Shown in pieces: positions 3,789-25,011 of a stretch of 25,422 nt of DNA. Every line of letters starts with the position of its first letter. Position 1 is the first letter of the stretch. The DNA lies in the IMG/VR virus record IMGVR_UViG_2574180238_000002; one strand, 5' to 3'. The position numbers were made by a program, and so were the translations under genes. The DNA is from a virus. Its lineage: Duplodnaviria > Heunggongvirae > Uroviricota > Caudoviricetes. The notes under the pieces are model-generated. The model saw nothing but the letters and a program-made list of their open reading frames with translations, searched no databases and was not told the DNA's origin.

Positions 3789-3945
3789 TTCTTCCCACTC
3801 CGCCACATCGCATTCAGATATTTGTTGTCATTAACAGAACCGAAACTCTTTCTCTTAAGCAATTCCTCTCTCGATGGCATTGGCTTTACGCGTTGGCGAA
3901 TAATCATTTCTGCCGGAAGAATGCCGGGATTGTATGCAAGTCCTC

Positions 3946-4236: not shown

Positions 4237-4246
4237 TGTTAATTCC

Positions 4247-4540: not shown

Positions 4541-4586
4541 TGGTGCTGGTATCGGATTGCTTGGCTCGTTGTTTTAAGGGGTAATC

Positions 4587-5993: not shown

Positions 5994-7837
5994 TGAAAGT
6001 AACTGCAAACGGTAAGACATTTACCTTCCCTGATGGTACGAGCACGGAAGATATTGGATCTGCCATTGATGAGTATTTTGCTGGACAGTCTGTTCAGCAA
6101 CAAACTGTCAGCCAGGATAGCAATGAACCAGCACGTGAAGAACCATCATTGATGCAACAAGCTGGCGATTGGCTCACTGGTGGTCAAAGTGCAGGGCAAA
6201 TTGCTGAACAGGCTGGTCGTGGTCTGGTAAACATACCATTTGACGTATTGCAGGGTGGTGCAAGTCTGATTAATGCAATCAGCCAGGGGCTTGGTGGCCC
6301 AAAGGTTTTGGATGATGTTTATCGTCCAGTAGATCGACCAACAGACCCTTATGCGCAAGCTGGAGAAACAATTGGCGGGTATTTAGTTCCAGGAGCTGGA
6401 ACGGCAGGAAGCATGGCTATTGGATCACTGGCAGAGGCCGCAAATCAGAAAGGCGATTTCGCACAAAATGCAGCCAAAAATGCCGGAGTTAACCTTGCCG
6501 CTCAGGGTGTTCTTTCCGCAGCAGCAAAGGGAATAGAGCGTGGAATAACGGCTATAAAAGGTGATATTGCGCCAGAAGTGGCGAAGAAAATTGCCACATC
6601 AGAATCGATGGGCGTGACACCAATGACATCTGATGTTATCCCGCCGAAAAATGCTTTCACTCGTGGCCTTACTCAGGATGCCGAGGGTGCTTTGCTCGGG
6701 ACAGGCTCAAAGCGAGCGGAGCAATATGCAACGCGTAGTAAACTGGTAAGCAATTATTTTGACCGTTTTGGTGAGTATAACCCTGATGATGTGGTGAAAT
6801 CTCTGACCACCACGTTAAGGGGGAGGAAGGATGCCGCTGGCGCTGTTATCAATGACGTCACCAATAAAATGGGTAATGCCGCAGTTGATACCACAAATAC
6901 CATGAATGCTCTGAATACAGCGATCGCAAGACAGGAACGGCTTGGGACGTCTGCCAATCAAAGCCTGCTTACATCCTTGCGTAACCTACGTGAAGAATTA
7001 GCAAACCCTGCAACTGATTTGGATGTTACGTTTGATCTCTTGCGTCAGCACAGAACAGCATTTAGATCTAATGTTCAGGGAGATGCTATGGTCTTCCCCA
7101 ACCAGGCAAAAGCAGCTACCAATATGGTAGAGAATGCAATGTCAAAAGACCTTCGTAACGCAGTTGCTAAAAACCTCGGTGCATCAGACGCAGCAAAATA
7201 CCTTAAAGCAAATTCCGATTATGCAAACGTTTATAATAAGGTGCTTAATAAAAACATTGCTAACAAGCTCAACAAGGCAAGCAGTGAAGCCAGTCCTGAA
7301 CTTATAAATACCGTTGTATTAAGCAGAAAACCATCTGACGTGAAACGAATCTGGAGCGCACTGGATGATAAAGGGAAAGATGCTATGCGTGCAGCTTACG
7401 TCAGCAAAATAGCGGAAAAGGCCGGTGACTCTCCAGCCAAGTTCATCACTGAAGTTAATAAGCTGAAATCTCAGTCAGGCGGTGAAATTTACAACACTAT
7501 TTTTTCTGGAAAGCACATGAAAGAGCTTGATGCTCTTCATGAAGTTCTACAGCAAACAGCAAGGTCAGACACCGCAAATGTAGTAACTCAGACGGGGCAA
7601 TCGCAAGCCAACAGGATAAGGACGATTGGCGCAACTGCGACCCTTGGCGTATCAATGGGGCTTGAGGCTGGTTTTGGTGCAATGATGCGCTTGTATGAGT
7701 CCAAAGCAGCAAGGAATGCTCTCTTACGCCTGGCAAACACTAAAACTGGAACGCCAGCTTATGAAAGAGCGCTAAATAATGCTGCAAATGCGATACGCCC
7801 TATACTTTCAAGCCAAATTACAGCAGAACAGCAATAA
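5990..7837 (+). CDS. P22 gp16-like ejection (DNA transfer) protein
   Basis: 615 aa; ATGA overlap with the upstream gene; size matches P22 gp16 (~609 aa); synteny with mnt-like gene and tailspike. Confidence 0.7.
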
Positions 7838-7851
7838 AAGATAAGATATAA

Positions 7852-8337
7852 CTACCTGATATTACTGCTACTGTTGCATGTTACCGTGTTTCCAAATCCT
7901 GAATTGCAGTTTGTATATGTGTCAACGCGTGTTGGGTAAGGTTGAGTTATAACAGGCTGGCGCGCTTTTTGCTCGATCGCTTGCATTGTGTTTACAGCCT
8001 GATAATTCAATAAAGCCTGCTGGAATGCTTGGCTTTGCGCTATTTGTTGGGCTTGCTCTTGGCTTTGTAATTGAACATAAAGATTTTGAAGCTCAAGTCT
8101 TGCCTGTGCGTCACTTATCTTACCTTCATCAACACCTTGCCCGAGCATCTTTGCGGCAAGGACATACAGCTTAGGTGTTGGTGCAGACGCCATGCGTGAG
8201 TCGTTCTTCACACTGGCATCAAGGCAATTAGCCATATCGCTAAGCTTTTGATAGCGTTGTTCGCAACTTGCTTGATAGTCACTTACTTTTGCGCATCCAA
8301 CCAGAAGAAGCGGGATAATTAACAGTGATTTTTTCAT
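7852..8337 (-). CDS. lipoprotein in the sieA-equivalent position
   Basis: ATG at 8337 with AAGGAG RBS; MKKSLLIIPLLLVGC is a signal peptide with lipobox; Gln-rich C-terminal half. Confidence 0.6.
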   Translation of the reverse strand: MKKSLLIIPLLLVGCAKVSDYQASCEQRYQKLSDMANCLDASVKNDSRMASAPTPKLYVLAAKMLGQGVDEGKISDAQARLELQNLYVQLQSQEQAQQIAQSQAFQQALLNYQAVNTMQAIEQKARQPVITQPYPTRVDTYTNCNSGFGNTVTCNSSSNIR

Positions 8338-8407
8338 ATGGTTAACTCTCCTTAGTTTTTCACAGGATATCATGAAGGCAATGCCATTTTAGCCGGAAAC
8401 TAGATTT

Positions 8408-8674
8408 CTATGTTTCCTTTTTATTATTGCTATACATGGTCTTAAGCGTTTCAAAAACCATTTTCTTAACCATATCAGATTGTTGTTCTGCCATACGCTC
8501 TGCATCGTCAATGTAAACTGATGCAGAGCTTTGTTTAGCCAATGATTCTTCAATCGCTGCAATTATCTCTGAGTTCAGCGACCTGTTATTCATCTTCGCG
8601 CGCTGTTTAATTTTCGCGTGGAGTTCATGCGGAAGTCTCAAGTGAAACTGCGCCTCGTCGTATTTGCTGTACAT
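8408..8674 (-). CDS. mnt: Mnt-like ribbon-helix-helix repressor
   Basis: 88 aa from ATG at 8674; aligns by eye with remembered P22 Mnt (..NGRS.NSE...DAER.A..QS..VKKMVF.TLK..Y). Confidence 0.7.
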   Translation of the reverse strand: MYSKYDEAQFHLRLPHELHAKIKQRAKMNNRSLNSEIIAAIEESLAKQSSASVYIDDAERMAEQQSDMVKKMVFETLKTMYSNNKKET

Positions 8675-8795
8675 CCTTGATGCCTCACCAGTTGGGTGGA
8701 ATGGCATCGTAACCTACTGGATAAATACTCAATAGTACCATTTCTGTATGCAATCACATCATGGTTGCATCATATCATTCGTCTGGAGCAATGAA

Positions 8796-10613
8796 ATGTC
8801 AGATATCACCGCAAATGTTGTGGTAAGCATGCCTTCTCAACTCTTCACTATGGCTCGTTCTTTTAAAGCTGTAGCCAATGGCAAAATTTATATCGGTAAA
8901 ATTGACACTGACCCGGTAAATCCTGAAAACCAGATTCAGGTTTATGTGGAGAACGAAGACGGCTCTCACGTTCCTGTATCGCAGCCAATCATCATTAACG
9001 CTGCCGGATATCCTGTATATAACGGACAGATTGCCAAATTCGTAACTGTGCAAGGCCATTCTATGGCTGTTTATGATGCATATGGGGCGCAGCAGTTCTA
9101 TTTTCCTAATGCGTTGAAGTGTTCCCCTGACCAGGGAATTATCAGGTTAAAAGAAGAAATTGCGAAAGATGATGGAGAGAAATATATCGGAATATGCCCT
9201 GACGTTTCTACACTCAGAACAATTGAGCCATCATTCGTCGGGCAAAATATAACTGTTCGTGGATACTACTCTGACACACCCGGGCTTGGGGGAGGAACGT
9301 TTATAGCCTTTTCCAGTTCTGAAGCTGACGATGGTGTGAATATTTTTGTTACCCCTGGCGGTAAGCGATGGAAGAGAGCAGGAAGCCACATCGATATTCC
9401 GGTAGAGAACGGTGGCATGATGACATCATGTACGGCTGAGCAAAACAGTGAAGCCTTTGAACGCCTGACTGCATGCCTTCCATATGAAGGAGGTACGCTC
9501 AGACTCAATGGATTTTACGGTATTAAGTATGGCGCTATCGTGCCTCCACGTGTCACGCTGGAGGGGTGCGGTATGGATTCCTGTGGATTAATTAAAACAG
9601 GTAACGATATTAAAACCGTTCCGGATCGCATGTGGCAGGGTGTACCACACAGCTTCTCCAAAGACTTTATTGTTGCGGTAGATATGGATAGTGACACATC
9701 AGGTGATTTAAGCGGGACACAAACAAGAAGCACCAGAATAATTGGATTGAGTATTCTAAATACTGCGCCCAATCCTTGTGATTACGGGATATATAGCGCT
9801 ATCAGTTACAATGTGCGCCTTCAGGACCTGTATATTCATAGGGTGAAAACCGGTTATCGCACTAGTGATAGTTGGTTGCAGACATGGGAAAACATTACTA
9901 TTCAGGATGTCGTTACTGGAGTTAAAATCGAAGCAGGTGGAACCACATATAATTTAAACAATATTTATGTGAAAACATGTTCAGGTGTTGCATATGATTT
10001 TAATAACATTACATATAGCAGCCTGACTTGTTTGGCTGCTGACTTCGTTAATGGTACTGGCTATAAATTTAAAGATTGTACTGGAGTGAATCTATCTGGA
10101 TGCGGAAGCGAAGAAGGCACTGGTAAAATATTTGATATAAATGGTAGTCGAATTAACGTAACTGCATTTAGAGGGGTTAATCATCATGATGGAGGAGTTG
10201 AAGCTGTATCTCTGGAATCGTGTTTCATCTCATTGGTTTCATCTCATTTTTCTAGTTACTCTGGAGTCTCATCTAGCAAATACATATATCTTAATAATGC
10301 AACTGCAAATTTTAATGGTACGGTAATTCCCGACAACACCACTGATTCTATTAGATGGGGTAGTGCGCAGAGCAGGATCAACAAGGTTGATTCAGGCGGC
10401 ACCTATAGTATAACCGGAAACTCATCATGGACTGCATTATGCAGACTTGAGTCAGGATATATAACGGTTCTATCAGTATCACCACCCACGGGAGATACAA
10501 CTAATTTCCCGTTTGGCACCAAGTGGGAATTGCTTGGTCAGGTTTATACCGGACCGTGGAAGTGGACATACGTATCAACTGGTGAATGGAAGGTATCCGC
10601 AACTACCACGTAA
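8796..10613 (+). CDS. tailspike with P22-type head-binding N-terminus and divergent receptor-binding domain
   Basis: [11 protein letters not shown]...[35 protein letters not shown]...[11 protein letters not shown] matches the remembered P22 gp9 N-terminal ~110 aa; the rest does not resemble P22 gp9. GGAG RBS. Confidence 0.85.
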
Positions 10614-10640
10614 AAAAAAGGGGCTTTCAGCCCCTTTTTA
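10612..10640. terminator. bidirectional rho-independent terminator
   Basis: aaaaaaaa-ggggct-ttc-agcccc-ttttta: perfect 6-bp GC-rich stem flanked by A-run and T-run, between convergent tailspike and acyltransferase genes. Confidence 0.65.
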
Positions 10641-10641
10641 T

Positions 10642-11685
10642 CTAATATCTGAATTTGTTTGATATCTTTTTCCCAATATCCATTGCTGGTTTTTCTATCG
10701 CAATAAATGATATCAGTCCAGCAATAAGTGATAGTGCTATGCATAAAACTTGATTTAAGTACAGGTTTATATCAGGTAATAACCTGAATGTTATCTGCTG
10801 TATTAAAAAGCCCCACAAGTAAACGCCATATGACACATCATGTTTTATTCTTACTGATTTTATTATTTTTGTTGTTGATAAATACACGAAAAATGTACAT
10901 GCGCAAAAGTAAAAAAGCATATGCTTGAGTGTTGGGTCTGACACAAAATTATATAATATTGCAAATCCTATTGGTGCATGTGGTGAAATGTATATTTTGT
11001 CCTTGTTTATAGCATACAATGCGCCAAGAGCAAAGCATGGAGCCATTAAAAACACATCTGCATTATCGTTATTTATAAAAATTAATTTGTTCCATCCCAA
11101 TACTGGAAGCGCTATTATTGATAAGCATATGATGCTAGGTATTATTCTTCCTCTGCTCTGAGTTATCATGTAGCATGCTAGGAGCACGACATAAGATGCA
11201 ACTTCATATGGTATTGTCCATAAGGAACCATTAACTGATCTTTTATATATATTTTCCTCAAAAACACCAGGAAGAAAAAATTGCATATCCAAATATGAGC
11301 TTTTAAATAGATAGCTGTACGTCAGTGTATCTTTTAAATAAGATGTCATTGAGTGCGTTGTAAGTAATGGTCCAACAATGAATGTCGCGAATAATAAAAC
11401 AAAAATGAATGCGGGGAATATTCTAAAAAATCTAGATGAAATAAAGTGTGGTATGTTGCGCGTTGTTAATAAACTATTAGTTACAAGCATTCCACTAATA
11501 AAGAAAAATATTTTTACAGCAATGGAACCAGTATATGTAAATGTGAAAACAGACTGAACCGGCTCCTGGGCTCCATCAGAATTTGCAAGATAATATGAAT
11601 GGGCAAATATTACAGAAATTGCACAAAAAATACGTATTAAGTCAAGGTTATTGTTATCCCTTTTTAGCGCATCTTTGACCAACAT
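10642..11685 (-). CDS. integral-membrane acyltransferase family 3 protein (O-antigen acetyltransferase-like)
   Basis: 347 aa from first ATG; multiple hydrophobic segments; N-terminal motif ...LDLIRIFCAISVIFAHS typical of acyltransferase-3/Oac-type enzymes; visibly AT-rich; sits where P22-like phages carry O-antigen conversion genes. Confidence 0.7.
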   Translation of the reverse strand: MLVKDALKRDNNNLDLIRIFCAISVIFAHSYYLANSDGAQEPVQSVFTFTYTGSIAVKIFFFISGMLVTNSLLTTRNIPHFISSRFFRIFPAFIFVLLFATFIVGPLLTTHSMTSYLKDTLTYSYLFKSSYLDMQFFLPGVFEENIYKRSVNGSLWTIPYEVASYVVLLACYMITQSRGRIIPSIICLSIIALPVLGWNKLIFINNDNADVFLMAPCFALGALYAINKDKIYISPHAPIGFAILYNFVSDPTLKHMLFYFCACTFFVYLSTTKIIKSVRIKHDVSYGVYLWGFLIQQITFRLLPDINLYLNQVLCIALSLIAGLISFIAIEKPAMDIGKKISNKFRY

Positions 11686-12075
11686 AAAAATCACCTAACT
11701 GTTTATTTTGAAGAGCATTGTATCATCAGATAGCCGCACTTTCACTCCCATCAGATCACCGTCAGAAATTATCATAAGCGCCAGTTCATCATGTGCAATT
11801 GCGTGCAAACAAAATATTCACTGCAGAGAGATTAAGTAGATTGATTCTACTGGGTTGGCATGAGACAAAACTGAGACACAGAAAGCTTTGCACTGGATTG
11901 CAAGGCTTTGTGCTCTCCTGTGGATGTGTGTCTACATGTTTGAAGATTGTTGTGCCGTATTTGTGACATACGCATGACAACATCATGCATCAACTTTCTG
12001 TTTGTGCCATCAACTATAGCTTAGTGAATGCGGTTAATGCTTGCTAAAACAGATAGTTATGATTGGTGCTACAGA

Positions 12076-12121
12076 TTCGTAATGCGAAGGTCGTAGGTTC
12101 GACTCCTATTATCGGCACCAT
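12076..12121 (+). other. partial tRNA-Thr 3' segment (anticodon loop to CCA): central att site of the tandem array
   Basis: ATTCGTAATGCGAAGGTCGTAGGTTCGACTCCTATTATCGGCACCA matches the 3' 46 nt of tRNA-Thr(CGU) as remembered; upstream bases do not form the tRNA 5' half, so this is not an intact gene. Confidence 0.7.
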
Positions 12122-12726
12122 CAAGAAAATCAATAACTTAGCTTAACTTCTCTAAGAAATTGTATCTTCTGTTATCACTTACAAACGCCTATACGTTGTT
12201 ATGGGCTTTGGTAGTGTAACACGTATGGGCGAGTAGTTCCCAGGCTCAACCTCGTAACAAGTTCCTTTGAAGCTGGAAGACGTGCCACCGTCTCTAAACC
12301 TTCTACCAAAACTCTTAGCAAGATGTTCCACACCTGGCGCGGTGTCCAATGATGCTACACGTCGTGAGACGTTGCAGAGGATAAACAGGCTAAATGATGG
12401 GAAGAGTTTTAAGTGCAATAGTGGATCAAAGCCCACCTCTTCAAAACCTAACTTGATCGGGAAAGAATCAAGCTCTAGCACGGTTTCGTCCACCGGAGTA
12501 CAACGGGTGCCTGATAAGAGAAGAACTGCTAAGACTTCATAGCTTTTGTGAAAAAGCCCTTTTTAGTGGATACGCCTACGGCGCTTATTTTTTGGTATAA
12601 CCATCAAAGGCGCTTTATGGCTCCTATTGTCTTGAAAATGTATCTTTACTTGTATTGTGTTTTATGCGTAGTCTCCCTGTGTAGTATGTAACTTGTTAAT
12701 TTTCATATGAATACAGAGGCAACACG

Positions 12727-12879
12727 ATGAAAAACATTGCAGCTATAAAACGTAATAACCGCAAGATTCACGCTCGTAAGTTCCTGTCTACGCCAGAAGG
12801 AAAAGCCTGGCTAGAGCGTAAACAGAGAGAGAACGAAGAAAGAAAACTCCTTAGTGAGTTGAAATGGCTTAAGGATTGA
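12727..12879 (+). CDS. small basic protein (50 aa), uncertain
   Basis: MKNIAAIKRNNRKIHARKFLSTPEGKAWLERKQRENEERKLLSELKWLKD; not in the ORF track (below its length cutoff); followed by a long hairpin. Confidence 0.3.
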   Translation: MKNIAAIKRNNRKIHARKFLSTPEGKAWLERKQRENEERKLLSELKWLKD

Positions 12880-13429
12880 ATCACCAGTAGGCGCATAACA
12901 CATCCAGCGATCAAAGATGTGTTTATGCGCCTGATAGTGAAATTATTAAAGTTTTTTAGTTAATGTAGCCATTGCATGAACGATGATCGCTAGTGAATCG
13001 ATTTTATCTCGAGGGGTAAAATAGATGAGGTATATGATGGTAACAATTACAGCTAAAGTAATTGTGGTTCTGCAGGTTTTTAAAATGGATAAGATAAAGC
13101 GCATAGATACCCCCTATTGATTTAACAACAATAAGGTATCATTTATTTTTTATTGCATGCAATGTGCAAATTTTCACATATAATAGCTTACTATTCACTT
13201 TGCATGGTGTCAACAAGATGATGTGTTGTTTTGTTTGATTTGTTCAAGATAATATTTCATTTTCTCATCTATATAACTTGTGTTTTAGATAATTTCACTA
13301 ATTGTAAAAGTTACGTATTGCTTAATAGCTGCCTTTTTATCTGAAATCGGCGCAAACGTGATCAATGTTTAACGCGAAGATCAGCGGCGTCAGGTCCACG
13401 CAGCGACAATTCTCAAATATCAGGAGGCA

Positions 13430-13981
13430 TTACGCTTCCTGCTCTTTCTTGATACGTTGCACCGTCTGTGTGCTGACACTGAAATCTTTTGCTACGCTCC
13501 GAATTGATCCACCATTCGCGAGAGCGGCAACAATTCCCGCTCGATCAATTGCTTTTCCATTACCACGTTTTGCTATACGTCCAGCGGCCTTAGCTGCGGC
13601 GATCCCCTCACGTTGCCGCTCAAGCATCATTTCACGTTCCATTTGTGCCACTGCTGCAAGCACTGTGAGCATCATATTCCCTGCGGGAGAGTTCTTCCCT
13701 GTCTTAAAGTCTTCTTTATGGAAATGCACAGACACGCCGCGCTCTGTTAATTGCTCAACCGTTGCCAGAAGGTCGGCTGTATTACGGCAAAGGCGATCAA
13801 TACTGTGAACATGCACAACATCACCTTCCCGCACATAGTTCATCATTGCCTCAAACTGTGGGCGCTGAGTGTTCTTGCCTGACGCTTTATCTTCAAAGAC
13901 TTTATCAAGAGTTACTCCAGCTAATTGACGGTCTGTGTTTTGTTGCACAGTCGATACCCTAATGTATCCAATATTAGCCAT
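13430..13981 (-). CDS. serine recombinase (resolvase/invertase family)
   Basis: MANIGYIRVSTVQQ... with the catalytic Ser context, DRL.R motif and C-terminal HTH (GGSIRSVAKDFSVSTQTVQRIKK); ~183 aa, typical of small resolvases/invertases; RBS 9 nt upstream of ATG at 13981. Confidence 0.8.
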   Translation of the reverse strand: MANIGYIRVSTVQQNTDRQLAGVTLDKVFEDKASGKNTQRPQFEAMMNYVREGDVVHVHSIDRLCRNTADLLATVEQLTERGVSVHFHKEDFKTGKNSPAGNMMLTVLAAVAQMEREMMLERQREGIAAAKAAGRIAKRGNGKAIDRAGIVAALANGGSIRSVAKDFSVSTQTVQRIKKEQEA

Positions 13982-14507
13982 TTTCATTTTCCTTCTGTGT
14001 TGATTTGTGTGTAGTGATTATTGATCGTGTTGATTAGGTGTGTAAAGGACTTTTTTCACTACGAAATTCGAAGGTTTTTAGTGTGGTGATTTAGCCTGCT
14101 TTATCACTACACGTCTTGCATGAGAATCATGTAGTTACATTTTGGTAAAATTAGCAAGCTATTAAATAGTGTGTTTATTTTGAAAAAATAATTTTTTGTT
14201 GCATTAAAGGAAACTTGTTCGACAAATAATAGATTGATTTTTAATCAACAATTTCTGATAGTGCTCTGTAAGCCGTATTACACAAGGCTTTGCGAAAGTG
14301 ATGTAAAAGTGAAGAAAGCTAACATTGCACTTTTTAAGCTACTTTTCATTGGATTTTTACGTAGGAATTACACAGGGATTAATCATCAATTACATTGAAT
14401 TTAAGCCTGTTTTAGATGTTTAATTTTGGTAGCAAGAAACACTTTTAGAAGATCATTGCACAGATGTTATGTGATAAATGGATGTAACGGTAGGTCACTG
14501 TGAACTA

Positions 14508-14644
14508 CCCCCACAGAATTCTGTTATCCTTAACTTTTAAAGAAATATGCACCCTAACAGAAAACTGTTACCCCAACCCTAACAGAATTATGTTAGATAC
14601 CCCCACAGAAAACTGTTAGCCACCCCTACAGAATTTTGTTACCT
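14508..14644. repeat. array of five ~23-bp iterons, each a TAACAG-N4-CTGTTA palindrome preceded by a C-run
   Basis: Cores at 14513-14526, 14557-14570, 14582-14595, 14605-14618, 14628-14641; four of the five start 23 bp apart. Confidence 0.65.
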
Positions 14645-14756
14645 ATTAGATCAACTATCAAACTACAATTAAATTATCTTTTATAAATTCTTTTATCTTT
14701 AAAGAATAATTAAGTGATACCCGTTAGGGAGTCTTCGACTATCCCTTAATCTATTG

Positions 14757-15033
14757 GCATTCGCCAGAACCTTGCACAAGTTAGAGTGTTAGTCGTTAGA
14801 CTGCTTGTCATAACACATAGTTTTTGTTTGTTGATGTTAGTTAGTAGATCTATGTTCGCTAATGCCGCTCACAACGAATATGTAATCTACTATGTGCAAA
14901 TAGCCTACGGCTTGCGTAAGGCTAAATAGTCTATGCGCTGTGCGCTTCAATAGTTCCATTGATGAGGCTTACGCCAATCTAACGATCATCAATCATCTAA
15001 AATAAATTTCTTGTGCAATGTTCTGGCGAATGC
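14757..15033. repeat. 24-bp inverted-repeat pair flanking a 229-bp segment
   Basis: gcattcgccagaaccttgcacaag (14757-14780) versus reverse complement of cttgtgcaatgttctggcgaatgc (15010-15033): 23/24 identity. Confidence 0.55.
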
Positions 15034-15339
15034 AATTAGAGTAGCGTTACCCCTTTGGGGATGCTAACGCATAACTATAGATCAACCATCAAACAGACAA
15101 AAAAGAAAAATATGGTTTAAAGATGTTAGGTAGTAGATGAGATTCTACCGCTTAAATCAAGCCGTAGGCGAGCTAAACAGCCTCTACATAAGGGAATGTA
15201 TTGTATTTATCAAAACCTCGTCAGAGGGCGTTTTAGAGCGTTTTAGAGAATAAGGAAGAATAGGAGCACTCTTAAGAGCACGAATTGCTAAGAAAAATTA
15301 TAACACACTGAAAATGATCAATATTTTTATGGCTAGGGG

Positions 15340-15368
15340 TTGACAAAAGCTTTTAGTCGTGGTAAAGT
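15340..15368 (+). promoter_or_regulatory. candidate sigma70 promoter for the 15492-17800 operon
   Basis: TTGACA (15340-15345), 17-bp spacer, TAAAGT (15363-15368). Confidence 0.4.
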
Positions 15369-15491
15369 AATATTAGGGACAGAAAACATTCTTATCCTCT
15401 AAGTAATTAAACCAATGCACCGCACTTTGAAGCCCAACAAGGCTTGCAAGGTGTTTTTTCTTTTAACCAAATAGAATAAGGAGGCTAATTA

Positions 15492-15668
15492 ATGAAATAT
15501 TTTACTCCACAGGATGTAGTTGAAGCCTGGAAACGTGGTGAGATTAATCGTTTTAAAGTAAGGATGAACAGGAACACAGCGCGACGCTGTGGTTATCCAG
15601 AGCGTGAAAAATGCTTTGACGATGCACTAAAAATTATTGATGAACTGCGTAAGGCAGAGAAAGAATAA
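15492..15668 (+). CDS. small protein (58 aa), unknown function
   Basis: Strong SD AAGGAGG upstream of ATG; MKYFTPQDVVEAWKRGEINRFKV...; first gene of a co-directional operon. Confidence 0.5.
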   Translation: MKYFTPQDVVEAWKRGEINRFKVRMNRNTARRCGYPEREKCFDDALKIIDELRKAEKE

Positions 15669-15689
15669 TAACAGGAGAAGGAGAAAACT

Positions 15690-15860
15690 ATGAGCGAAAC
15701 TACAGAAAAGAAAAGACAACCACGCACTTGCTTTCATATTCCTGATGAAGTATTTCAGGTGTTGTTTAAAGAAGCCAGAAGTAAACGTATCACTGTTACA
15801 GATTACATTCTTGATATGTTGAAAAGAGAGGCTGAAACACTCTCAAACAAAAGCAAGTGA
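15690..15860 (+). CDS. small ribbon-helix-helix-like DNA-binding protein (56 aa)
   Basis: SD AGGAGAAGGAG; sequence RTCFHIPDEVFQVLFKEARSKRITVTDYILDMLKRE fits a beta-strand then two helices as in CopG/Arc/ParG-type RHH proteins (by-eye secondary-structure pattern). Confidence 0.5.
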   Translation: MSETTEKKRQPRTCFHIPDEVFQVLFKEARSKRITVTDYILDMLKREAETLSNKSK

Positions 15861-15913
15861 TTTTTATCACCATAGTAGCGCCGTAGAGCGTGATTACATC
15901 AAGGAGATTTTTA

Positions 15914-16483
15914 ATGATTAATGAAGAACAATTTGTAAAAGTTCCTATGTGGATTCTAAAAATAAGCCAAGTAAACGGACATAAATTTACAGATAGTGCT
16001 AAAAACCTTTACTGCTATCTGAGAGGGTTTGATCGTGCATTTCCCTCTTACGCTAAGATAGGCGATGTTTTTGGCATAACACCAAGAGCAGCAGAAGAAA
16101 GGGTTAAGAAATTGCTCGAAATGGGATTAATTATAAAAGATGCACGACCAGGAAGCTCTAACCTTTATCGAGTGCTTGATATTCCAAAAGGAGAATCATC
16201 ACTACCTGATCCTTCTGAGAAAGAAGACGAATCTAATGAAATATTGAATGTTTCCGAAATCATCGTTGAAGAAGAAACACAAGAGCCAGAGTTCCCTGAG
16301 CGGCCCGAAATTTTTACTTGGCTTCTTTCCCTTGATAAGAAGAAACCACCGCACGAAGAAACAGAAGATTTTGTAAAACGAGCATTAGATTCAAAGAATA
16401 TCTATCTTTGTGAAAATGATTTTGACTCTTTGATAATTGATCTCAAAAGTGAGAGCACAATATATGATTCACTACCCTTCTAA
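15914..16483 (+). CDS. predicted winged-helix DNA-binding protein with acidic C-terminal tail
   Basis: ATG at 15914 with AAGGAG RBS; N-terminal ~90 aa has a wHTH-like pattern (..AKIGDVFGITPRAAEERVKKLLEMGLI..); C-terminal half highly acidic. Confidence 0.55.
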   Translation: MINEEQFVKVPMWILKISQVNGHKFTDSAKNLYCYLRGFDRAFPSYAKIGDVFGITPRAAEERVKKLLEMGLIIKDARPGSSNLYRVLDIPKGESSLPDPSEKEDESNEILNVSEIIVEEETQEPEFPERPEIFTWLLSLDKKKPPHEETEDFVKRALDSKNIYLCENDFDSLIIDLKSESTIYDSLPF

Positions 16484-16492
16484 GGAGAATAA

Positions 16493-16750
16493 ATGACTTA
16501 TAACATCACTATAGGAAACAAAACTATTGAAATAACTGAAAGCGGATACAACATTTTAAAAGCTATTTTGGACATAGAGTTTTCACCACCGACAGTGGTT
16601 AGCTTTTGTAGTTTAGGCGGCTACAGCGCACAACACGTAAATCATTTTACATCGTTCGGTGTGCTGGATTATGAAGGGATTAACAGCACTACATTTCGTC
16701 TTTTGAAATTAAACAAAGATTTTGAATTGTTTCTCACAAACAATCAATAA
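16493..16750 (+). CDS. hypothetical protein (85 aa)
   Basis: AAGGAG RBS; same-strand operon context. Confidence 0.5.
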   Translation: MTYNITIGNKTIEITESGYNILKAILDIEFSPPTVVSFCSLGGYSAQHVNHFTSFGVLDYEGINSTTFRLLKLNKDFELFLTNNQ

Positions 16751-16847
16751 CAACAGATCGGGCAATACATATGGCAAATGCATTTATGGCGATATTCATC
16801 GTAACAATGGCGTCCAGTTTTTATAATCCACATAAAAAGAGGGAAAA

Positions 16848-17231
16848 ATGGGAAGAAAGAAAAAGAACAACTTAAAACGTATTGAAAAAAACAGTAATTT
16901 CAATTCAAAAAGACAACGTCCACCGACACACACCAATAACGAAATTCCAGGGGAAGAGATAATCTTTATTCTTGAAACAGAATCCCCTGAATTAAGTGAT
17001 GAAGAATTAGAAATAATCCAATCAATGCCAGGCGTTTACTTTCGCCCAAGAACAAGAAAACAAACTATCATTTCTGATGGCACTCTGAAACGTTGGCAGC
17101 TTTTAGGGTTTAGCTCCTATCATCATTTTTTGGGATTTAACGCTTTCAATAATTGTGTAGGTGGTGCATCGGAAGTCGATCTGATGGCTCATTTAGAAGA
17201 TACATTAGCTTCTAACAAACGTTCTAACTAA
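16848..17231 (+). CDS. hypothetical protein with basic N-terminus and acidic middle (127 aa)
   Basis: RBS AGAGGG; N-terminal Lys/Arg-rich stretch followed by an acidic segment. Confidence 0.5.
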   Translation: MGRKKKNNLKRIEKNSNFNSKRQRPPTHTNNEIPGEEIIFILETESPELSDEELEIIQSMPGVYFRPRTRKQTIISDGTLKRWQLLGFSSYHHFLGFNAFNNCVGGASEVDLMAHLEDTLASNKRSN

Positions 17232-17246
17232 TAAAATGATGGGTGT

Positions 17247-17492
17247 ATGTATAAGCGCCCAATGAAAATATTCAAAAAAGGAAAAATAATGATTGGCTAT
17301 ATTCAAGAAACACAATTATTTCAGATGATCCTGTCTGATGCAAAAAACTATGCAGAGTTAATTCGGCTGGCAAAAGAAACAGAAGACTACGAAGCATTAG
17401 AGCGTTACCGTGATGAAGTGCTGACGCTCAAGACACCTTTTAACATCGTATTGAATATGATTAATGATGCATTACAAGGAGAATACGCATAA
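17247..17492 (+). CDS. hypothetical protein (81 aa; alternative start at 17289)
   Basis: ORF with better RBS (AAGGA) before the internal Met at 17289; stop overlaps the next start (ATAATG). Confidence 0.45.
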   Translation: MYKRPMKIFKKGKIMIGYIQETQLFQMILSDAKNYAELIRLAKETEDYEALERYRDEVLTLKTPFNIVLNMINDALQGEYA

Positions 17493-17800
17493 TGGAAGAA
17501 GATATTAGCAATGCAATGGAACAACTTTTAGAACTGACTATCTCACTACAAACAAGAATAAATCAAGCCTATTCAGATTTATGCGATTACACGCTCTCTC
17601 AATGCGTTATTAGCTTAATGAAGGTGAATGTAAGCCTTGACGATTTTATCTCTCTTGGGAGCGATTTAGAGCTATCAGAGGACGATGCAAAACAGTGTAA
17701 TCAAATCATCACAGACATCGCCACCACGTTAAAGGTTGCAAGTGAAGAGATTCAGCAATTAGTAGATGATTTAGCAAAAAGTGCTATTTTCTCTAAATGA
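17492..17800 (+). CDS. strongly acidic small protein (102 aa)
   Basis: AAGGAG RBS; about 19 Asp/Glu versus about 6 Lys/Arg by count. Confidence 0.5.
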   Translation: MEEDISNAMEQLLELTISLQTRINQAYSDLCDYTLSQCVISLMKVNVSLDDFISLGSDLELSEDDAKQCNQIITDIATTLKVASEEIQQLVDDLAKSAIFSK

Positions 17801-18642
17801 TAATGAAAATTATTTGCATTTATAATGATTTTGTTATATAATAATTTTAGGGGTAGATAAAAAGATTTTAGTTGGTGTTAATCCTTCTACTGTCATAAAT
17901 CCCTGCATATGGAAGGTGATAGCCTCAAAGGTTGAGTGGCATTAACCTCTAACAAATATTACCTTCCATCTCTCAAGAAGTTTTAGAATAATCATAACTC
18001 CCTCTTTGATTGTTGATTGTTTCTACGTTGTGTTGATGAATGTTGTTAGGCATTGTGCTTAATTTTGATAAAAGCGGGTAGGTGTTATCTCCTTGCCCTT
18101 CCCGCTCTTATTTTTCATCTATGCTTATCCTAAAGCTCCTTATTTTGTCAGAAAACATTAAAGAGCCTTACACTGATAGTTATATTTTATAACTATTTAC
18201 TAACATCATTAAACTATTATTTAATGACAGAAGTTAGTAACAGAATAATCTATTAAGTTGTTGTCAAAAACAATCATCTGCATAGCGTTAGCCGCAAGCA
18301 GAGAGAGTTTAGCTAAGAATGGTGCAATAAACTTTGGAAATATTGATAGCAAAACGGGTTTTATAGAATGCGGATCTATAAGCTTTGGTTGTAAAAACGA
18401 TTTTCTGAAACGGTAGATTACTGTTGGTGTAGTTAATCATTATTAAAAATTTAATCTGTGAGTAGATTGGAATAGTGATTCCTTAAAATCTGACTGGTGC
18501 ATCCACACCATGAAAGATAGCGGTTGGCCACCGCGCCCCGAATAGATATTCCTGATTGATTCCGCATGTTTTCCTAAGAGCATGTTTTCAGGAGTATCTA
18601 TTCACCCTTTAAGCATATCATCAAGTATATTTAAAAAGTGTA

Positions 18643-18671
18643 TTTGCTGATATGTTTAATCCTCTTATAGT
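18643..18671 (+). promoter_or_regulatory. candidate sigma70 promoter for the 18785-23366 operon
   Basis: TTTGCT (18643-18648), 17-bp spacer, TATAGT (18666-18671); weak -35, good -10. Confidence 0.3.
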
Positions 18672-18784
18672 TTAACTTATCAATTATGTAATTGCCCGCA
18701 CGTTAAAGCCCCTTTGCTGGTCAGAATTAACCTCTTACGGCATTGGGGCTTTTTATTTGTCTGGCACTAACAGGAACATTATTT

Positions 18785-18982
18785 ATGAAACAAGAAATGA
18801 TTATCAGCAAAGACGGGGAAACGATGATTGTTAGTGATGAAAACCTCATTAAGGTTGCCGCACTGTTGGGAGTTACTCCCGAAAGTCTTCGTTCTACCAC
18901 TGCTCAATTATTTAAATCGGCTGATGCGGTTAGTCTTGCTGATGCCCTTAAATCTAAAATTAAACAACTGAAAGGAAAATAA
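18785..18982 (+). CDS. hypothetical protein (65 aa)
   Basis: AGGA RBS before ATG at 18785; first gene of the second operon. Confidence 0.45.
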   Translation: MKQEMIISKDGETMIVSDENLIKVAALLGVTPESLRSTTAQLFKSADAVSLADALKSKIKQLKGK

Positions 18983-18986
18983 TCTT

Positions 18987-19370
18987 ATGGCTAACCCATA
19001 TGGAAAATTAAAAGCAGTGAATGCGGATAACTCCCGTTCACGCTGTAAGGTAGTAGCTTACGCTGCTGATCCAGTGCTGCAAGATCGCCTCGTCAAACTG
19101 GCTTCACCTCTCACTGACGATCTTATTGTCGGGGCTTTGCTGAAAGCCGATGGCACCAAAGCAACAACCGCATCTGATATTGCTCACGTAGTAGTTGAAC
19201 CGGCTTATGAAGGACAGGAAAGCGTAGTGGTTGCACATCCTACTTTCGTTATTCTGGCTGAAGATGGGATTGAATTTAACAGCATGGAAAAGGCAAGTGT
19301 TATTGCAAAACTGCAATCTCTCGGCTTTGTAATTGCTGGTTATGAAGAACTTGCGATCCCTACGACTTAA
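18987..19370 (+). CDS. hypothetical protein (127 aa)
   Basis: AAGGA RBS; tightly spaced with neighbours (4-14 nt intergenic). Confidence 0.55.
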   Translation: MANPYGKLKAVNADNSRSRCKVVAYAADPVLQDRLVKLASPLTDDLIVGALLKADGTKATTASDIAHVVVEPAYEGQESVVVAHPTFVILAEDGIEFNSMEKASVIAKLQSLGFVIAGYEELAIPTT

Positions 19371-19384
19371 CAAGGAAAATAATA

Positions 19385-20416
19385 ATGAATGATTTATCAA
19401 CATATTTTGGCGTTAATACTGCGGTAGTAACTCCATTTGCTTATGAGAATGCACTTAATACCCTGATTACTAATCTCGATCTGTTCGATGTGCAATATCA
19501 TACAGAAAACAGCATTCTTCTTACCGACCTGATTGATCAGTTTGTGCAGGTAGCTGGGGAAACCTCGCCTTACGCTCAAAGCGACTGGAACGCCTCTAAA
19601 CGTCAGGAATGGTCAAACAAACTTTTCCAGATGAAACACGTCGGCAGTATTAACGCTGTTACTTCTCGTGACCTGGAACAATACAGCCGCCAATATCCAA
19701 ACCGTTCTGATGCTATGCTGGTAGCGGTTAATGATTTCTCTGAGGCTCATTACCGTTCACACGCAAACCGTGTTGAAGTGGATCTGATTACCGCGCTGCT
19801 GGGCCTGAAAGTTGAATCTGAATATGCCGGACAAGGTGATCTCGACTTCCTCGACGGTCAGGCTAAAACCACGGTACCCGCTATCGACTTTGCATCGACT
19901 ACTGTTAACCCGTTCCTTGCTATTCGTAAAGCGGTGCGCTTACAGAGTGAAAAGCTGGGGTCTGGTCTTGCTGCAAAGCGAACTGGTGTAATTATCTTTG
20001 CTGCTGGCACTGCTGCTGATGGTTTGTCATCTAACCCGCTGATCAGTGACATGGTGAAATATGCAGGCGATGCGAGTGCTACGGCCCTGTTTACCCGTAT
20101 GGTTGATTCTAACCCAGCCTATGACTCTTTCCAGATTGGTGGGATCACTGTTATTGATGTGTCAATGTTTCCTGAGATTGTTGCTCACATCGGAGAGAAC
20201 GGTTTCGCAATTGTTCCGGTAATGGATAAAGCGGCACAGTGTTACCAGCTTCATAGCGGCGTTGGTGTGCGTCATGCTGAGTTAGGTCAAGATGCCGTGT
20301 TGCATCACCAATATCTAATCAAGGATGAATTCCAATTCCCATCTGTGGTTACTGAGACATCTTATCTGCCAGTAAACAACATTCCGCAAGCTATCATCTT
20401 CGGATCTGCTGCGTAA
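19385..20416 (+). CDS. hypothetical protein (343 aa), function unknown
   Basis: AAGGA RBS; no signal peptide or recognisable catalytic motif by eye. Confidence 0.55.
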   Translation: MNDLSTYFGVNTAVVTPFAYENALNTLITNLDLFDVQYHTENSILLTDLIDQFVQVAGETSPYAQSDWNASKRQEWSNKLFQMKHVGSINAVTSRDLEQYSRQYPNRSDAMLVAVNDFSEAHYRSHANRVEVDLITALLGLKVESEYAGQGDLDFLDGQAKTTVPAIDFASTTVNPFLAIRKAVRLQSEKLGSGLAAKRTGVIIFAAGTAADGLSSNPLISDMVKYAGDASATALFTRMVDSNPAYDSFQIGGITVIDVSMFPEIVAHIGENGFAIVPVMDKAAQCYQLHSGVGVRHAELGQDAVLHHQYLIKDEFQFPSVVTETSYLPVNNIPQAIIFGSAA

Positions 20417-20567
20417 TAAAGCGTTAATAGACGATTCCCCATCGGGGCAATAAGGGTAAAGGGATTAACTAACCTGTAGGCGCAAATACAGTAACGAATC
20501 TCTTTGCCCTTTTTGTTTTTCTACTGTCTACAAACCCAAATAAAAATATATATGTGAGAGAAAACCA

Positions 20568-20765
20568 ATGAATACAGAAAACCCACAATCCTTTATTCTT
20601 AAAGCTGTAAAAGAACTGGCAGCTATTAGCGAGGAATCAGTTATAAACACATCGGCGCTTTGCCGCCTTTTAGAAATTGATGCAAATAATGTGCGCCAGC
20701 GTGTCTTTCAGACTGGGTGCAGCACTTTCGAAGCAATTCAATACTATTGCTCTAAAAAACAATAA
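20568..20765 (+). CDS. hypothetical small protein (65 aa)
   Basis: ORF in operon context; weak RBS. Confidence 0.4.
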   Translation: MNTENPQSFILKAVKELAAISEESVINTSALCRLLEIDANNVRQRVFQTGCSTFEAIQYYCSKKQ

Positions 20766-20799
20766 TAAACAACAATCATAATACAGGGAAACAATTAGC

Positions 20800-22641
20800 A
20801 TGTTAGAACTTAACGTCAGCCGCTTATCAAACGTTGTCACCTTCCAGGTTGATCGACCATCATTAGAGAAAGCAAAAGCAGAAGTAGAAAAACTTCGTAA
20901 ACAAATGGCGGCGGTGAAAGATATAGAATTGCGTGTTAAGACACATAAACAATCAACTTCTAAAGCAAAAAAAGACGTAGACGATATTGCTAAAAAGCAA
21001 GCACAGGCAGATAAAGCCAATGCTAAAGCACAATTAGCCGCTCAACGTGTAGTTGCAAGAGAACAAAAAGCCCTGGCAGCACGCAAAGAGAAGGCAGACT
21101 TAAAACTGTTAGACGTTGGATCAAGCATTAGTGCATTGCACCGCCTTTCTGTAGCGGAACAATATAAAGCTATTGCACAGGCTAGAGAAATTGCCCTCCA
21201 ATATGAAAGAGGAGCTATTAGTCTGGCACGTATGAATAGCCAAATGAAACGCCTACAACAGCAACAACGTAAGATTAATGGCAATCGTAACGCTCACGCT
21301 AAAGCCTATGCACCTGTTAAGGGTAGCGGGAGTATTGGCGGCGGTGCTGCGGCTGTTATGCTGGGTGGCTTAGGCGCTGGCGCTACGTATATGGCTATGA
21401 GCAAAGCCTCTGAATTTGTTACTAACAGCTTTGCGAATGCTGAAACGCTGGGTGAATTGTATAGCCGTGCGAAGCTGGGCGGTGTAGACGTTAACCAGAT
21501 GAACAATATTGAGCAATGGGCCTACAAAAACGGCGTTGATTCAATGATGGGGGATCAAGGTAAACGTAAGTATCTCGATCAGATGAAAGATGTGCGTGAG
21601 CGTGCAACCAAAAGCTATGATGAGGCTGAATATGTAGTCGATAAAAAAACAGGCAAAGGTGAATGGAAGGGCGGCGATAGCGGCATCAATACTTTAATGA
21701 ATGAAGGATTCTTAACTAAAAAGGATCTAAAAGACTTTGCTGATAATCCGGCTGGTCTGGTTAGTAAAGCAGTTCAGGGAATGGTGAAGAAAGGCTATTC
21801 AGATGCACAAATCGGTAGTCGTCTGGAAGATCTGGCTGATGATTTGATGCTCACCTCTAAATACTGGACACGCTCCGCTAAAGAAGTGGAACAATCAGCA
21901 CGAGAACAACTAGAATCAGGGCGCTGGGTAACACAGGCACAACAGGAAAGCGTTATTAAATTCCGTGAACTGAATAATGCACTTAGTGGGCTTTCTGACT
22001 CACAAGGGATCGCCTTTGTTGATGGCTTTATGAAATCTCTTGATCCGAAAGTGATTGAAGAGTTTAAAAAGAGCATGGTTGCAATGCTGCCAATGTTTAC
22101 CAAATTAGGCGAGGCTATCGGCGGATTGGTTAACGCCGTAATGAAAACAATCAACTGGCTGATGAAAAACGACGAGAAGACGGAAGCTATTCAGAAGAAT
22201 TTAGGGGATGCACCGCCACTATCTAACGAAGGAATGAAGCAGAATCTTTCTAATCTCACTCCTGATCAATATAAAGGCGCTGGCACCGGAACAACTAAGC
22301 CAGATAACAGCAATTCCCTGGTTAACACTATTAAAAGCTGGTTTATGCCAGAAGAAACGGTAGGTGGGGCGCAGGCTGTAAATCAATACAGTCTCGAAGG
22401 ACAAAACATTGCAAATCTGAAACAGAGTGCAGCACAACAAGCTTTCAAGGCTCCTTCTTACACCTTTGCACCTGTTATTAACTTCAATCCAGAATTACAA
22501 GTAAATGCAGAAGTGCCGCTAACTATCGAATCAGACACCGGACGATTGAGCGAATTTATCGACTTCAAATCAAAGGCATCCTCCGCTGAGTTTAGCAAGC
22601 TATTAACGCTGGGTGTTATGTCAGGCGGGTCAACCTATTAA
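20800..22641 (+). CDS. large coiled-coil protein with Gly-rich hydrophobic segment (613 aa)
   Basis: AGGGA RBS; N-terminal ~170 aa Lys/Ala/Gln-rich heptad-like sequence; GSGSIGGGAAAVMLGGLGAGATYMAM resembles a glycine-zipper membrane segment. Confidence 0.6.
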   Translation: MLELNVSRLSNVVTFQVDRPSLEKAKAEVEKLRKQMAAVKDIELRVKTHKQSTSKAKKDVDDIAKKQAQADKANAKAQLAAQRVVAREQKALAARKEKADLKLLDVGSSISALHRLSVAEQYKAIAQAREIALQYERGAISLARMNSQMKRLQQQQRKINGNRNAHAKAYAPVKGSGSIGGGAAAVMLGGLGAGATYMAMSKASEFVTNSFANAETLGELYSRAKLGGVDVNQMNNIEQWAYKNGVDSMMGDQGKRKYLDQMKDVRERATKSYDEAEYVVDKKTGKGEWKGGDSGINTLMNEGFLTKKDLKDFADNPAGLVSKAVQGMVKKGYSDAQIGSRLEDLADDLMLTSKYWTRSAKEVEQSAREQLESGRWVTQAQQESVIKFRELNNALSGLSDSQGIAFVDGFMKSLDPKVIEEFKKSMVAMLPMFTKLGEAIGGLVNAVMKTINWLMKNDEKTEAIQKNLGDAPPLSNEGMKQNLSNLTPDQYKGAGTGTTKPDNSNSLVNTIKSWFMPEETVGGAQAVNQYSLEGQNIANLKQSAAQQAFKAPSYTFAPVINFNPELQVNAEVPLTIESDTGRLSEFIDFKSKASSAEFSKLLTLGVMSGGSTY

Positions 22642-22688
22642 TCATCACTGTGGGGCTGTTTAGCCCCCTTAAATAAGGATTACAAATT

Positions 22689-23366: not shown

Positions 23367-23446
23367 CCTTAAACGCCTATGAAACGCTCTGTAACGAGAT
23401 AATCATAAAAGAGGCATCAGCCTATATTGAAGCCTCTTTATTACGT

Positions 23447-24724: not shown

Positions 24725-24823
24725 AAAATCTCCGGCTAAAGTGTCGGAGCGTTTGTAATGTGAAAATTGATTGTGACGCATAGAAAATGATGATTTTTCT
24801 ATAAGATTCAATCAATTAGTAAT

Positions 24824-24885
24824 GGTCGTAGGTGATGGCATTAACACGAGATTAATCGAGTGTTTTACTCCTATTATCGGCACCA
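24824..24885 (+). other. degenerate pseudo-tRNA / right att of the second element
   Basis: 19-nt exact match to the tRNA-Thr 3' end (ACTCCTATTATCGGCACCA, 24867-24885), plus an upstream 10-nt tRNA-like piece (GGTCGTAGGT, 24824-24833) separated by non-tRNA sequence. Confidence 0.6.
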
Positions 24886-25011
24886 TTAAAATCAAAGAGT
24901 TACCCCATATTTAAATACACCACGTTTCCTCCTGTGCCGTATTTGTGCCATTGTAACCTTGGCAATTCATCAAAATACTGTTCTGACATCAGGCAGTGCA
25001 GGTGCAGACAT

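Follow-up and report, generated by a model that had tools for sequence, protein, structure and literature searches.

Iteron-type replication origins are described from phage lambda, from plasmids and from chromosomal islands. At ori-lambda, iterons are followed by an AT-rich tract, and the initiator O consists of a winged helix, a linker and a recruiting domain. Iteron plasmids (pPS10/RepA, F/RepE, R6K/π) carry direct repeats of about 22 bp, winged-helix initiators and an adjoining AT-rich DNA-unwinding element; in most cases the iterons are not palindromes and the bound form is a monomer with two winged-helix domains, and such origins typically have DnaA boxes. Short repeats and an AT-rich region make up the origins of phage-inducible chromosomal islands (PICIs) and Staphylococcus aureus pathogenicity islands (SaPIs), each Rep being specific for its own origin; the Rep of a PICI is a helicase, in many cases with a fused primase, and the origin lies just 3′ of rep. 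Here we analyze a five-copy repeat array at positions 14507 to 14644 of IMG/VR virus record IMGVR_UViG_2574180238_000002 (25,422 bp, the whole of which we call the window), within an integrated Escherichia coli island, and we propose that it is probably the iteron half of the island's replication origin, read by a lambda-O-like putative initiator encoded at 15914-16483.

In the PLE satellites of Vibrio cholerae, experiments have shown the origin to comprise several semi-palindromic iterons within an extensive stretch of non-coding DNA; the N-domain of PLE RepA covaries with this origin and its C-domain does not, and the ICP1 nuclease Odn joins a RepA_N-like domain to a T5orf172 nuclease and cuts the PLE iterons (PMC8263062). 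Iteron origins with matched initiators, and the PLE/Odn conflict, are therefore already known. What appears to be new at the present locus is the element family itself, a five-way specificity swap with retired, stacked arrays, phage nucleases with two tandem DNA-binding domains, and an initiator tip that resembles the tail of SSB, the protein that binds single-stranded DNA.

Repeat units, AT-rich tract and putative initiator

The array sits in a 1.5-kb stretch without a credible open reading frame (ORF), 13988-15491, which is a mosaic: blocks at 14185-14390, 14450-14532 and 15148-15690 are shared across the family, and the stretch starting at iterons 2-5 is swapped wholesale in other family members. 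The features that make up the candidate origin are as follows.

14507-14529, 14551-14573, 14576-14598, 14599-14621 and 14622-14644, plus strand: iteron array, five copies of a 23-nt unit (repeat search)
14551..14644, plus strand: iterons 2-5, type A (ACCCTAACAGAAAACTGTTA, ACCCTAACAGAATTATGTTA, ACCCCCACAGAAAACTGTTA, ACCCCTACAGAATTTTGTTA), period 23-25 bp
14645..14715, no strand: AT-rich tract, candidate DNA-unwinding element, containing TCTTTTAT(A/C) twice
14450..14532, plus strand: family-wide block, conserved in loci of other array types (motif scan)
14489-14507: single type-D site GGTAGGTCACTGTGAACTA, inside block 14450-14532 (motif scan)
14481-14491: type-E half-site GGATGTAACGG, inside block 14450-14532 (motif scan)
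15340..15368, plus strand: promoter-like site TTGACA-17-TAAAGT with upstream TG, a consensus match only, for the rightward operon
15914..16483, plus strand: putative initiator, 189 aa (Pfam HTH_36, 6.4e-4; PHROG matches; AlphaFold2 model)
15935-16183 (aa 8-90): T1 winged-helix N-domain of the putative initiator
aa 93-127: acidic disordered linker of the putative initiator
aa 130-180: helical C-domain of the putative initiator, with tip ...IYDSLPF

The first-pass annotation of this DNA had described five copies of TAACAG-N4-CTGTTA with C-rich flanks. Five copies are indeed present at that location, with start-to-start distances of 44, 25, 23 and 23 bp, and Tandem Repeats Finder likewise reports a period of 23. 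The core ACAGAA-N3-TGTTA (at most one mismatch) matches 6 times in the window, copy 3 being taken on both strands, against 0.66 expected, and 6 matches were reached in none of 100 shuffles. All 6 fall in a single 130-bp stretch; the search for the motif elsewhere, which the annotation had proposed as a check, found the core absent from the rest of the window. The full palindrome is perfect in copy 2 alone: it is broken in copy 3 (ATGTTA) and copy 5 (TTGTTA), both of which are perfect in a sister lineage (L006, L029 and L032; L numbers denote the loci compared). The C-rich flank exists on the left, as ACCC, and not on the right.

Pooling 40 sites from 8 distinct homologous arrays gave the consensus A-CCC-Y-N-ACAGAA-WW-C-TGTTA, with CCC, ACA, AA and TGTTA invariant at 40/40 sites and an invariant core of ACA-G-AA-WW-(C)-TGTTA. 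Because the left ACCC flank is one-sided and as invariant as the palindrome, each unit constitutes a directional 20-bp site. Copy 1 lies within block 14450-14532, which is conserved even in relatives with other repeat types, and the element-type-specific array therefore comprises copies 2-5. To the right of these, the AT-rich tract reaches 78-88% A+T in 40-nt windows, versus 65% across the non-coding region. The annotation's remark that no annotated feature explains the array holds for the RefSeq records, in which the region is blank, and the non-coding stretch carries no annotation in related genomes either.

In the AlphaFold2 model, the 189-aa protein has a winged helix (residues 8-90, predicted local distance difference test scores of 75-85) joined by an acidic, disordered linker to a small C-domain made of helices. 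The protein matches PHROG replication-initiation and O-like families at 1e-8 to 4e-3. Its N-domain, T1, is one of five N-domain types in the family, all of which match only PHROG families of replication initiation, O-like or DnaD-like helicase loader proteins (E 1e-5 to 1e-11), the O-like families matching family proteins at 1e-5 to 1e-10; no repressor or terminase PHROG family was matched by any of the five. All intact family members end in ...YDS(L/I)PF or ...(D/E)DFD(I/L)PF (window 16460-16480). We know of no initiator with described recruitment by an SSB-tail mimic; speculatively, the tip (...YDSLPF or ...DFDIPF), which resembles the SSB sequence DDDIPF, might be such a mimic and recruit a replication factor. 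In SSB, this C-terminal hexapeptide is the contact to DnaG and other partner proteins (PMC5872125).

Matching of array types to DNA-binding domains in islands and phages

We compared 40 loci, comprising the window, 15 loci from complete genomes and 24 from IMG/VR, and scored for each the repeat types upstream of the operon, counting two or more copies as an array. The T3 domain did not turn up in a scan of IMG/VR, and four extra T3 loci came from E. coli genomes. Across the sample, one of five unrelated repeat types, each palindromic, occupies the array position, and all are built alike from a short palindrome and mostly a C-run/G-run spacer at a period of 22-24 bp. Arrays in relatives have 2-9 copies, reaching 9-10 tandem copies in L008. 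The types and the N-domains encoded with them are:

Type A, ACAGAA-N3-TGTTA: with T1, 11 loci
Type B, ACCCC-TATCAA-N3-TGATA: with T3, 5 loci
Type C, AGGAANTGNNTTCC (fuller form AGGAAATGAGTTCCT-ACCTACCC): with T2, 7 loci
Type D, TAGGTCAC-N-GTGACCTA (fuller form TAGGTCACTGTGACCTA-GGGGG): with T4, 13 loci
Type E, TGTAACG-N4-GTTACA: with T5, 3 loci

The protein is modular, with five unrelated N-domains (T1-T5) and two C-domains found in many combinations. The array that adjoins the AT-rich tract agrees with the N-domain type in 39/39 array-bearing loci, a count to be discounted on two grounds, namely that many loci are close relatives and represent some 2-4 recombinant backgrounds per type, and that repeat types and pairings were defined on the same loci used for the test. 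Iterons 2-5 of type A, in particular, are limited to the loci with a T1 initiator (11/11). In the 40th locus the element has decayed and its type C units are degenerate. The alleles of orfA and orfB, two small ORFs that lie between the array and the protein gene, are independent of array type, as are the initiator C-domain and the serine recombinase gene found at 15 of 36 loci. Since the intervening markers are shuffled and both ends are matched, selection for a working protein-site pair accounts for the pattern better than linkage.

Base composition follows the same pairing. In all 39 loci A+T makes up 83-94% of the 70 bp that follow the cognate array on its right (mean 87%, versus 64% on the left), and the AT-rich tract adjoins the cognate array and no non-cognate array. 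Array types are stacked in 12/40 loci, for example E, D, B, C and then cognate D, and in 12/12 of these the cognate array is the rightmost one, beside the AT-rich tract. Non-cognate repeats, stacked or left over, occur in the window (14450-14532), at L010:4230-4710, in L035 and at L042:1320-1640. Those lying left of the active array might have survived from successive module exchanges, or might serve as decoys or for cross-talk.

The same DNA-binding domains recur in phages. When the 189-aa protein was searched by tblastn against about 50,000 phage genomes, the only matches were to virulent Stephanstirmvirinae myophages of about 150 kb, which encode chimeric proteins:

Mt1B1_P17, QNJ49226.1 (L037:4001-4987): T1 + T2 + nuclease domain
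BI-EHEC, unannotated ORF (L038:3977-4966): T1 + T2 + nuclease domain
inny, QHR69854.1 (L039:1528-2631): T5 + T2 + nuclease domain
muut, QHR65951.1 (L040:1501-2499): T3 + T2 + nuclease domain

The first domain of QNJ49226.1 is 99% identical to residues 1-105 of the window protein, and one C-terminal domain is common to all four phage proteins. This domain matches phrog_681 'endonuclease' at 2e-18, Pfam MUG113 at 22.3-22.5 bits (cut-off 22.3) and T5orf172 weakly (0.03), and it is 35-52% identical to the products of annotated homing or GIY-YIG endonuclease genes of T5-like and other phages. These homologs came from tblastn and PHROGs; a word-index protein search with the nuclease C-domain alone returned nothing. 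The genes for the phage and island DNA-binding domains share 95-99% DNA identity, which extends to 40-125 nt upstream of the start codon, and therefore were exchanged recently between phages and islands. The T4 domain was not found in any phage; T4 with type D is the commonest island type in our sample (13/40). Clustered A or C arrays were absent from the first 50 kb of Mt1B1_P17, the part of the genome scanned (the other 101 kb fell outside the scan).

The type A array is the sole candidate T1 site in the island, and by analogy with Odn the phage chimeras argue that T1 would read a specific site that matters to the island. Among the roles that the first-pass annotation had listed for the array, a plasmid-type origin gains support from the covariation, the AT-rich tract, the initiator-family matches and the chimeric nucleases, and the same evidence points to the winged helix-turn-helix protein encoded downstream as the likely binder. 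Cooperative binding of a dimeric protein to sites spaced by about 23 bp, which it had also suggested, fits the data.

Alternatives to a replication origin

The alternative that survives best, though we consider it unlikely, is that the array is a set of transcriptional operators and the winged-helix protein an island repressor or activator that controls a promoter in the non-coding region. The covariation demonstrates that protein and array match, and says nothing of the output of binding; RefSeq names the protein a 'transcriptional regulator', generic winged-helix repressors head the fold search, and a weak leftward promoter-like match (14661->14633, 9/12 positions) covers the right edge of the array. 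However, the only good promoter for the operon (15340-15368) is 700 bp away and lies in block 15148-15690, which is conserved in all loci and invariant with array type, and with 4 promoter-like matches the region has fewer of them than its shuffles (7.4). The 9-10 tandem copies of L008 would be unusual for an operator, every cognate array adjoins an AT-rich tract, and the PHROG matches are all to replication initiators; the SSB-like tail and the phage nuclease chimeras also fit an origin better. We favor an origin over an operator because of the AT-rich tract, the exclusively initiator-type PHROG matches, the lambda-O-like layout, the distant and invariant promoter and the arrays of up to 9-10 units. 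An operator for the ribbon-helix-helix (RHH) protein that the annotation had assigned to the 56-aa ORF is rejected, as the two alleles of this ORF, or its absence, assort freely with array type.

We regard as very improbable a packaging site (pac- or cos-like) at which the winged-helix protein would act as small terminase subunit for the motor of a helper phage. Small terminases such as lambda gpNu1 do bind repeated sites through a winged helix, both covariation and targeting by phage nucleases would be expected of a pac site, and the island has structural-gene homologs and no terminase. Nevertheless, the five domain types match no terminase family in Pfam, PHROGs or NCBIfam and match initiators instead, and packaging gives no role to the AT-rich tract or the SSB-like tip.

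Still less credible is a partition centromere, another of the annotation's suggestions, with the RHH-like ORF as adaptor or the winged-helix protein as TubR. Centromeres of the parC, parH and tubC kinds are typically arrays of 5-10 phased repeats, and the protein has a weak profile match to TubR (6tey, E 0.023). The island, however, encodes no ParA, ParM or TubZ-type NTPase, the element is integrated with attachment (att) repeats on both sides, and the RHH-like ORF varies independently of array type. Less credible again are hairpins in a transcribed RNA, or a chance or slippage repeat without a protein partner: each unit can form a hairpin of 4-6 bp with a 4-nt loop and all five repeat types are palindromic, but the stem is broken without compensation in copies 3 and 5, the non-palindromic ACCC is conserved like the stem, no Rfam family matches, and a perfect match to protein domain type would not be expected. 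Finally, recombination or accessory sites (res- or hix-like) of the adjacent serine recombinase, which the annotation had also raised and which the palindromic units and the gene end 520 bp from the array might suggest, can practically be dismissed, given that near-identical recombinases (WP_001273867/8/9, 871) lie beside type A, type C and degenerate arrays, that 21 of the 36 loci have arrays and no serine recombinase, L004 carrying a 192-aa tyrosine recombinase in its place, that palindromes of 12-16 bp are far shorter than the 26-34-bp dimer sites of invertases and resolvases, and that an inverted segment of the region was seen in none of 17 loci.

Several points, besides the limits on the covariation count given above, weigh against a replication origin with this protein as initiator. 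The assignment of the protein draws on PHROG matches of moderate strength: the window protein does not match Pfam PF04492 Phage_rep_O, for which the best score in the family, that of the T2 domain, is E 0.014 and 16.4 bits against a cut-off of 28.7; NCBIfam and PDB sequence and profile searches returned nothing specific for this protein, and Foldseek against the PDB gave only generic winged-helix matches (E >= 0.05). The array stands 848 bp away from the operon's first ORF and 1.27 kb upstream of the gene for the initiator, whereas the lambda origin lies inside that gene and the PICI origin next to rep. The non-coding region has no convincing DnaA boxes, unlike iteron plasmids, and no convincing IHF (integration host factor) sites or oriC-type 13-mers. 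No helicase, primase or helicase loader is recognizable in the island by Pfam or PHROG; PLE are reported to borrow replication functions, and the absence of these genes would fit a satellite that borrows them, but is not evidence for borrowing. The satellite lifestyle is itself something that we infer.

We nevertheless consider the origin the probable explanation. The locus has more than three direct repeats at a near-helical period, an adjoining AT-rich element and, on genetic grounds, a matching initiator encoded by the element. The array resembles ori-lambda in its 4-5 iterons, each symmetric about an internal dyad and recurring about every two turns, followed by an AT-rich tract, and the protein resembles lambda O in an N-terminal winged helix that appears to set iteron specificity, a flexible linker and a C-terminal domain that may recruit partners. 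It differs in not reaching Phage_rep_O, in having an SSB-like C-terminal tip in place of a P-binding domain, and in that no P/DnaC-like loader gene was found. As in iteron plasmids, direct repeats and a winged-helix protein occur with an AT-rich element alongside, but the units combine a palindrome with ACCC and the protein has a single winged helix. As in PICIs and SaPIs, the satellite origin would consist of short repeats and an AT-rich region with a matched Rep specificity; unlike a PICI Rep, the 189-aa protein has no NTPase domain, and the origin is upstream of its gene across two other ORFs.

If the array is an origin, it might work as follows. The rightward operon, from the promoter-like site at 15340, would produce the 189-aa protein, whose T1 winged helix would recognize the 20-bp units ACCC-YN-ACAGAAWWCTGTTA, a specificity supported by the covariation. 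The period of 23-25 bp, about two helical turns, would place the bound proteins for cooperative contacts, and the protein may bind each unit as a symmetric dimer, or as a monomer with an added contact to ACCC. By analogy with lambda-type and plasmid iteron origins, the nucleoprotein complex would then destabilize the adjoining 70-bp, ~85% A+T tract (14645-14715), and the C-domain, speculatively through its SSB-like tip, might recruit a helicase or primosome and so the replication machinery of the host or of a helper phage.

The island and a candidate conflict with virulent phages

The array belongs to an island of 12.8 kb (~12125-24861) in E. coli, delimited by 28-bp att repeats that are 89% identical and 12.77 kb apart; an intact tRNA-Thr occupies the equivalent of the left repeat in L001. 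A P22-like prophage shares the island's attachment site and is arranged in tandem with it; the right end of this prophage, with genes for an acyltransferase, for injection proteins and for a tailspike that has a head-binding domain, makes up window positions 1-12096. Other features of the island are:

12097..12124, plus strand: left att repeat, tRNA-Thr 3′ end, GTTCGACTCCTATTATCGGCACCATCAA, direct repeat with 24862-24889
13430..13987, minus strand: serine recombinase of DNA-invertase type, 185 aa (Pfam Resolvase, 8.9e-39; phrog_125 DNA invertase, 4.5e-62)
14716..15075, no strand: self-complementary conserved block with an inverted repeat, 14747-14780 / 15010-15043
15492..15668, plus strand: first operon ORF, 58 aa, a family-wide conserved gene whose alleles vary independently of array type
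15690..15860, plus strand: 56-aa ORF, the RHH protein of the first-pass annotation; two alleles or absence, independent of array type
19385-20416: structural gene, weak homolog of the major capsid protein (MCP)
20800-22641: tape-measure-like gene (phrog_16051, 1e-33)
22689-23366: Dit-like structural gene
23447-24811, minus strand: tyrosine integrase, just inside the right att repeat
24862..24889, plus strand: right att repeat, direct repeat with 12097-12124

The serine recombinase appears to be a neighbor outside the replicon, and the 56-aa ORF had no match in the family searches. The self-complementary block to the right of the AT-rich tract contains a 34-nt inverted repeat (88% complementary) and has folding z-scores of -6.1 (plus strand) and -6.6 (minus strand). 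No compensatory changes were found in it, the aligned sequences being too conserved, and it could fold as single-stranded DNA, act as an RNA or be bound by a protein. A switch that inverts between the long inverted repeats can be rejected, since the block was in inverted orientation in none of 17 loci. Neither the window nor the non-coding region contained an RNA family by Rfam, whether gathering thresholds or a permissive E-value was applied, and a tRNA search found none. By blastn, the non-coding region had no match in phages and matched two E. coli plasmid records only, one of which is a mislabeled chromosome.

The non-coding region contains further short repeats that are conserved. The motif ATTACACA(A/G)GG occurs twice, at 14277-14290 and 14367-14380, and is commoner in relatives such as L005; GCGTTTTAGA forms a tandem pair at 15228-15248, about 100 bp upstream of the promoter-like site, in every locus examined. 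Both are candidate sites for the small ORF products. In relatives with the other version of the variable block, 9-bp tandem repeats, ATCTTATTA / ATCTTATCT, in at least four copies (L008:5137-5190, L005:4986-5053, L013:5256-5323) replace the self-complementary block of the window some 500 bp to the right of the origin; the window has none.

Among 5,426 complete E. coli genomes, 747 (~14%) contain relatives of the non-coding stretch, which lie downstream of tRNA-Thr, tRNA-Gly or tRNA-Leu, or within other loci; those in MS8345 presumably lie in the vat pathogenicity-island region. Family searches found no terminase, portal or replication enzymes among the island ORFs, and the structural set is partial (MCP-like, tape-measure-like and Dit-like only), with a tape-measure-like protein 30% identical to that of Stephanstirmvirinae. 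With its att repeats, integrase, incomplete structural set and recent DNA exchange with Stephanstirmvirinae, the island looks like a satellite of these virulent phages. In a full-text literature search that included accessions, and whose coverage omits most subscription journals, no account of the island family or of the phage chimeras was found.

The parallels with PLE and ICP1 are extensive. Both concern a satellite, here a candidate one, of ~13-18 kb with semi-palindromic iterons in a large non-coding region, an initiator whose N-domain covaries with the iterons and whose C-domain assorts separately, a module swapped among elements, and a virulent phage that encodes a chimera of the initiator DNA-binding domain and a T5orf172-type nuclease. 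They differ in host and phage lineage and in the DNA-binding domain, which here is HTH_36/O-like. RepA_N was not detected by sequence, the 189-aa protein having no match to Pfam RepA_N, although the RepA_N structures 4pql and 4pta gave the longest Foldseek alignments (100-101 columns, E 0.08-0.19) amid many generic winged-helix proteins. There are five specificities here and two in PLE; the phage nucleases, unlike Odn, have two tandem DNA-binding domains, the first of them swapped among T1, T3 and T5; and DNA identity between the phage and island copies is 95-99%, versus 42% protein identity between Odn and RepA. The arrangement of PLE and Odn has been demonstrated experimentally; that of the island and the phage chimeras is proposed from sequence.

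Given these parallels, we speculate, and judge the balance to be about even, that the array is a contested target in an undescribed E. coli counterpart of the PLE/ICP1 conflict, in which tRNA-integrated satellites of Stephanstirmvirinae (in the ~14% of genomes noted above) would combine modular origins, specificity swaps and recruitment through an SSB mimic, and would face two-domain nucleases. By analogy with ICP1 Odn and PLE, the phages would counter the satellites with endonucleases that bear the same DNA-binding domains, and the satellites would escape through joint swaps of array and N-domain among at least five specificities; the stacks of retired arrays may, with the same even balance, have been left behind by such swaps. 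Four Klebsiella and Raoultella myophages of ~146-150 kb (records OM835951, Klebsiella KP12; PQ133625; OY978784; and MG250486, Raoultella Ro1) encode a nuclease domain 39-52% identical to that of the E. coli chimeras, and these nucleases might target satellites of those hosts.

If these proposals are correct, an unannotated and apparently 'empty' 1.5-kb region in hundreds of E. coli genomes would be a replication origin with a readable specificity code, and its five pairs of protein domain and DNA site would amount to a natural experiment in the retargeting of winged helices. Likely helper phages would be identified for an uncharacterized island family, with testable predictions as to which satellite types each phage overcomes. 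The arms race around origin-directed nucleases would then extend beyond its sole known case, PLE and ICP1, to E. coli and the phage genera Phapecoctavirus and Justusliebigvirus.

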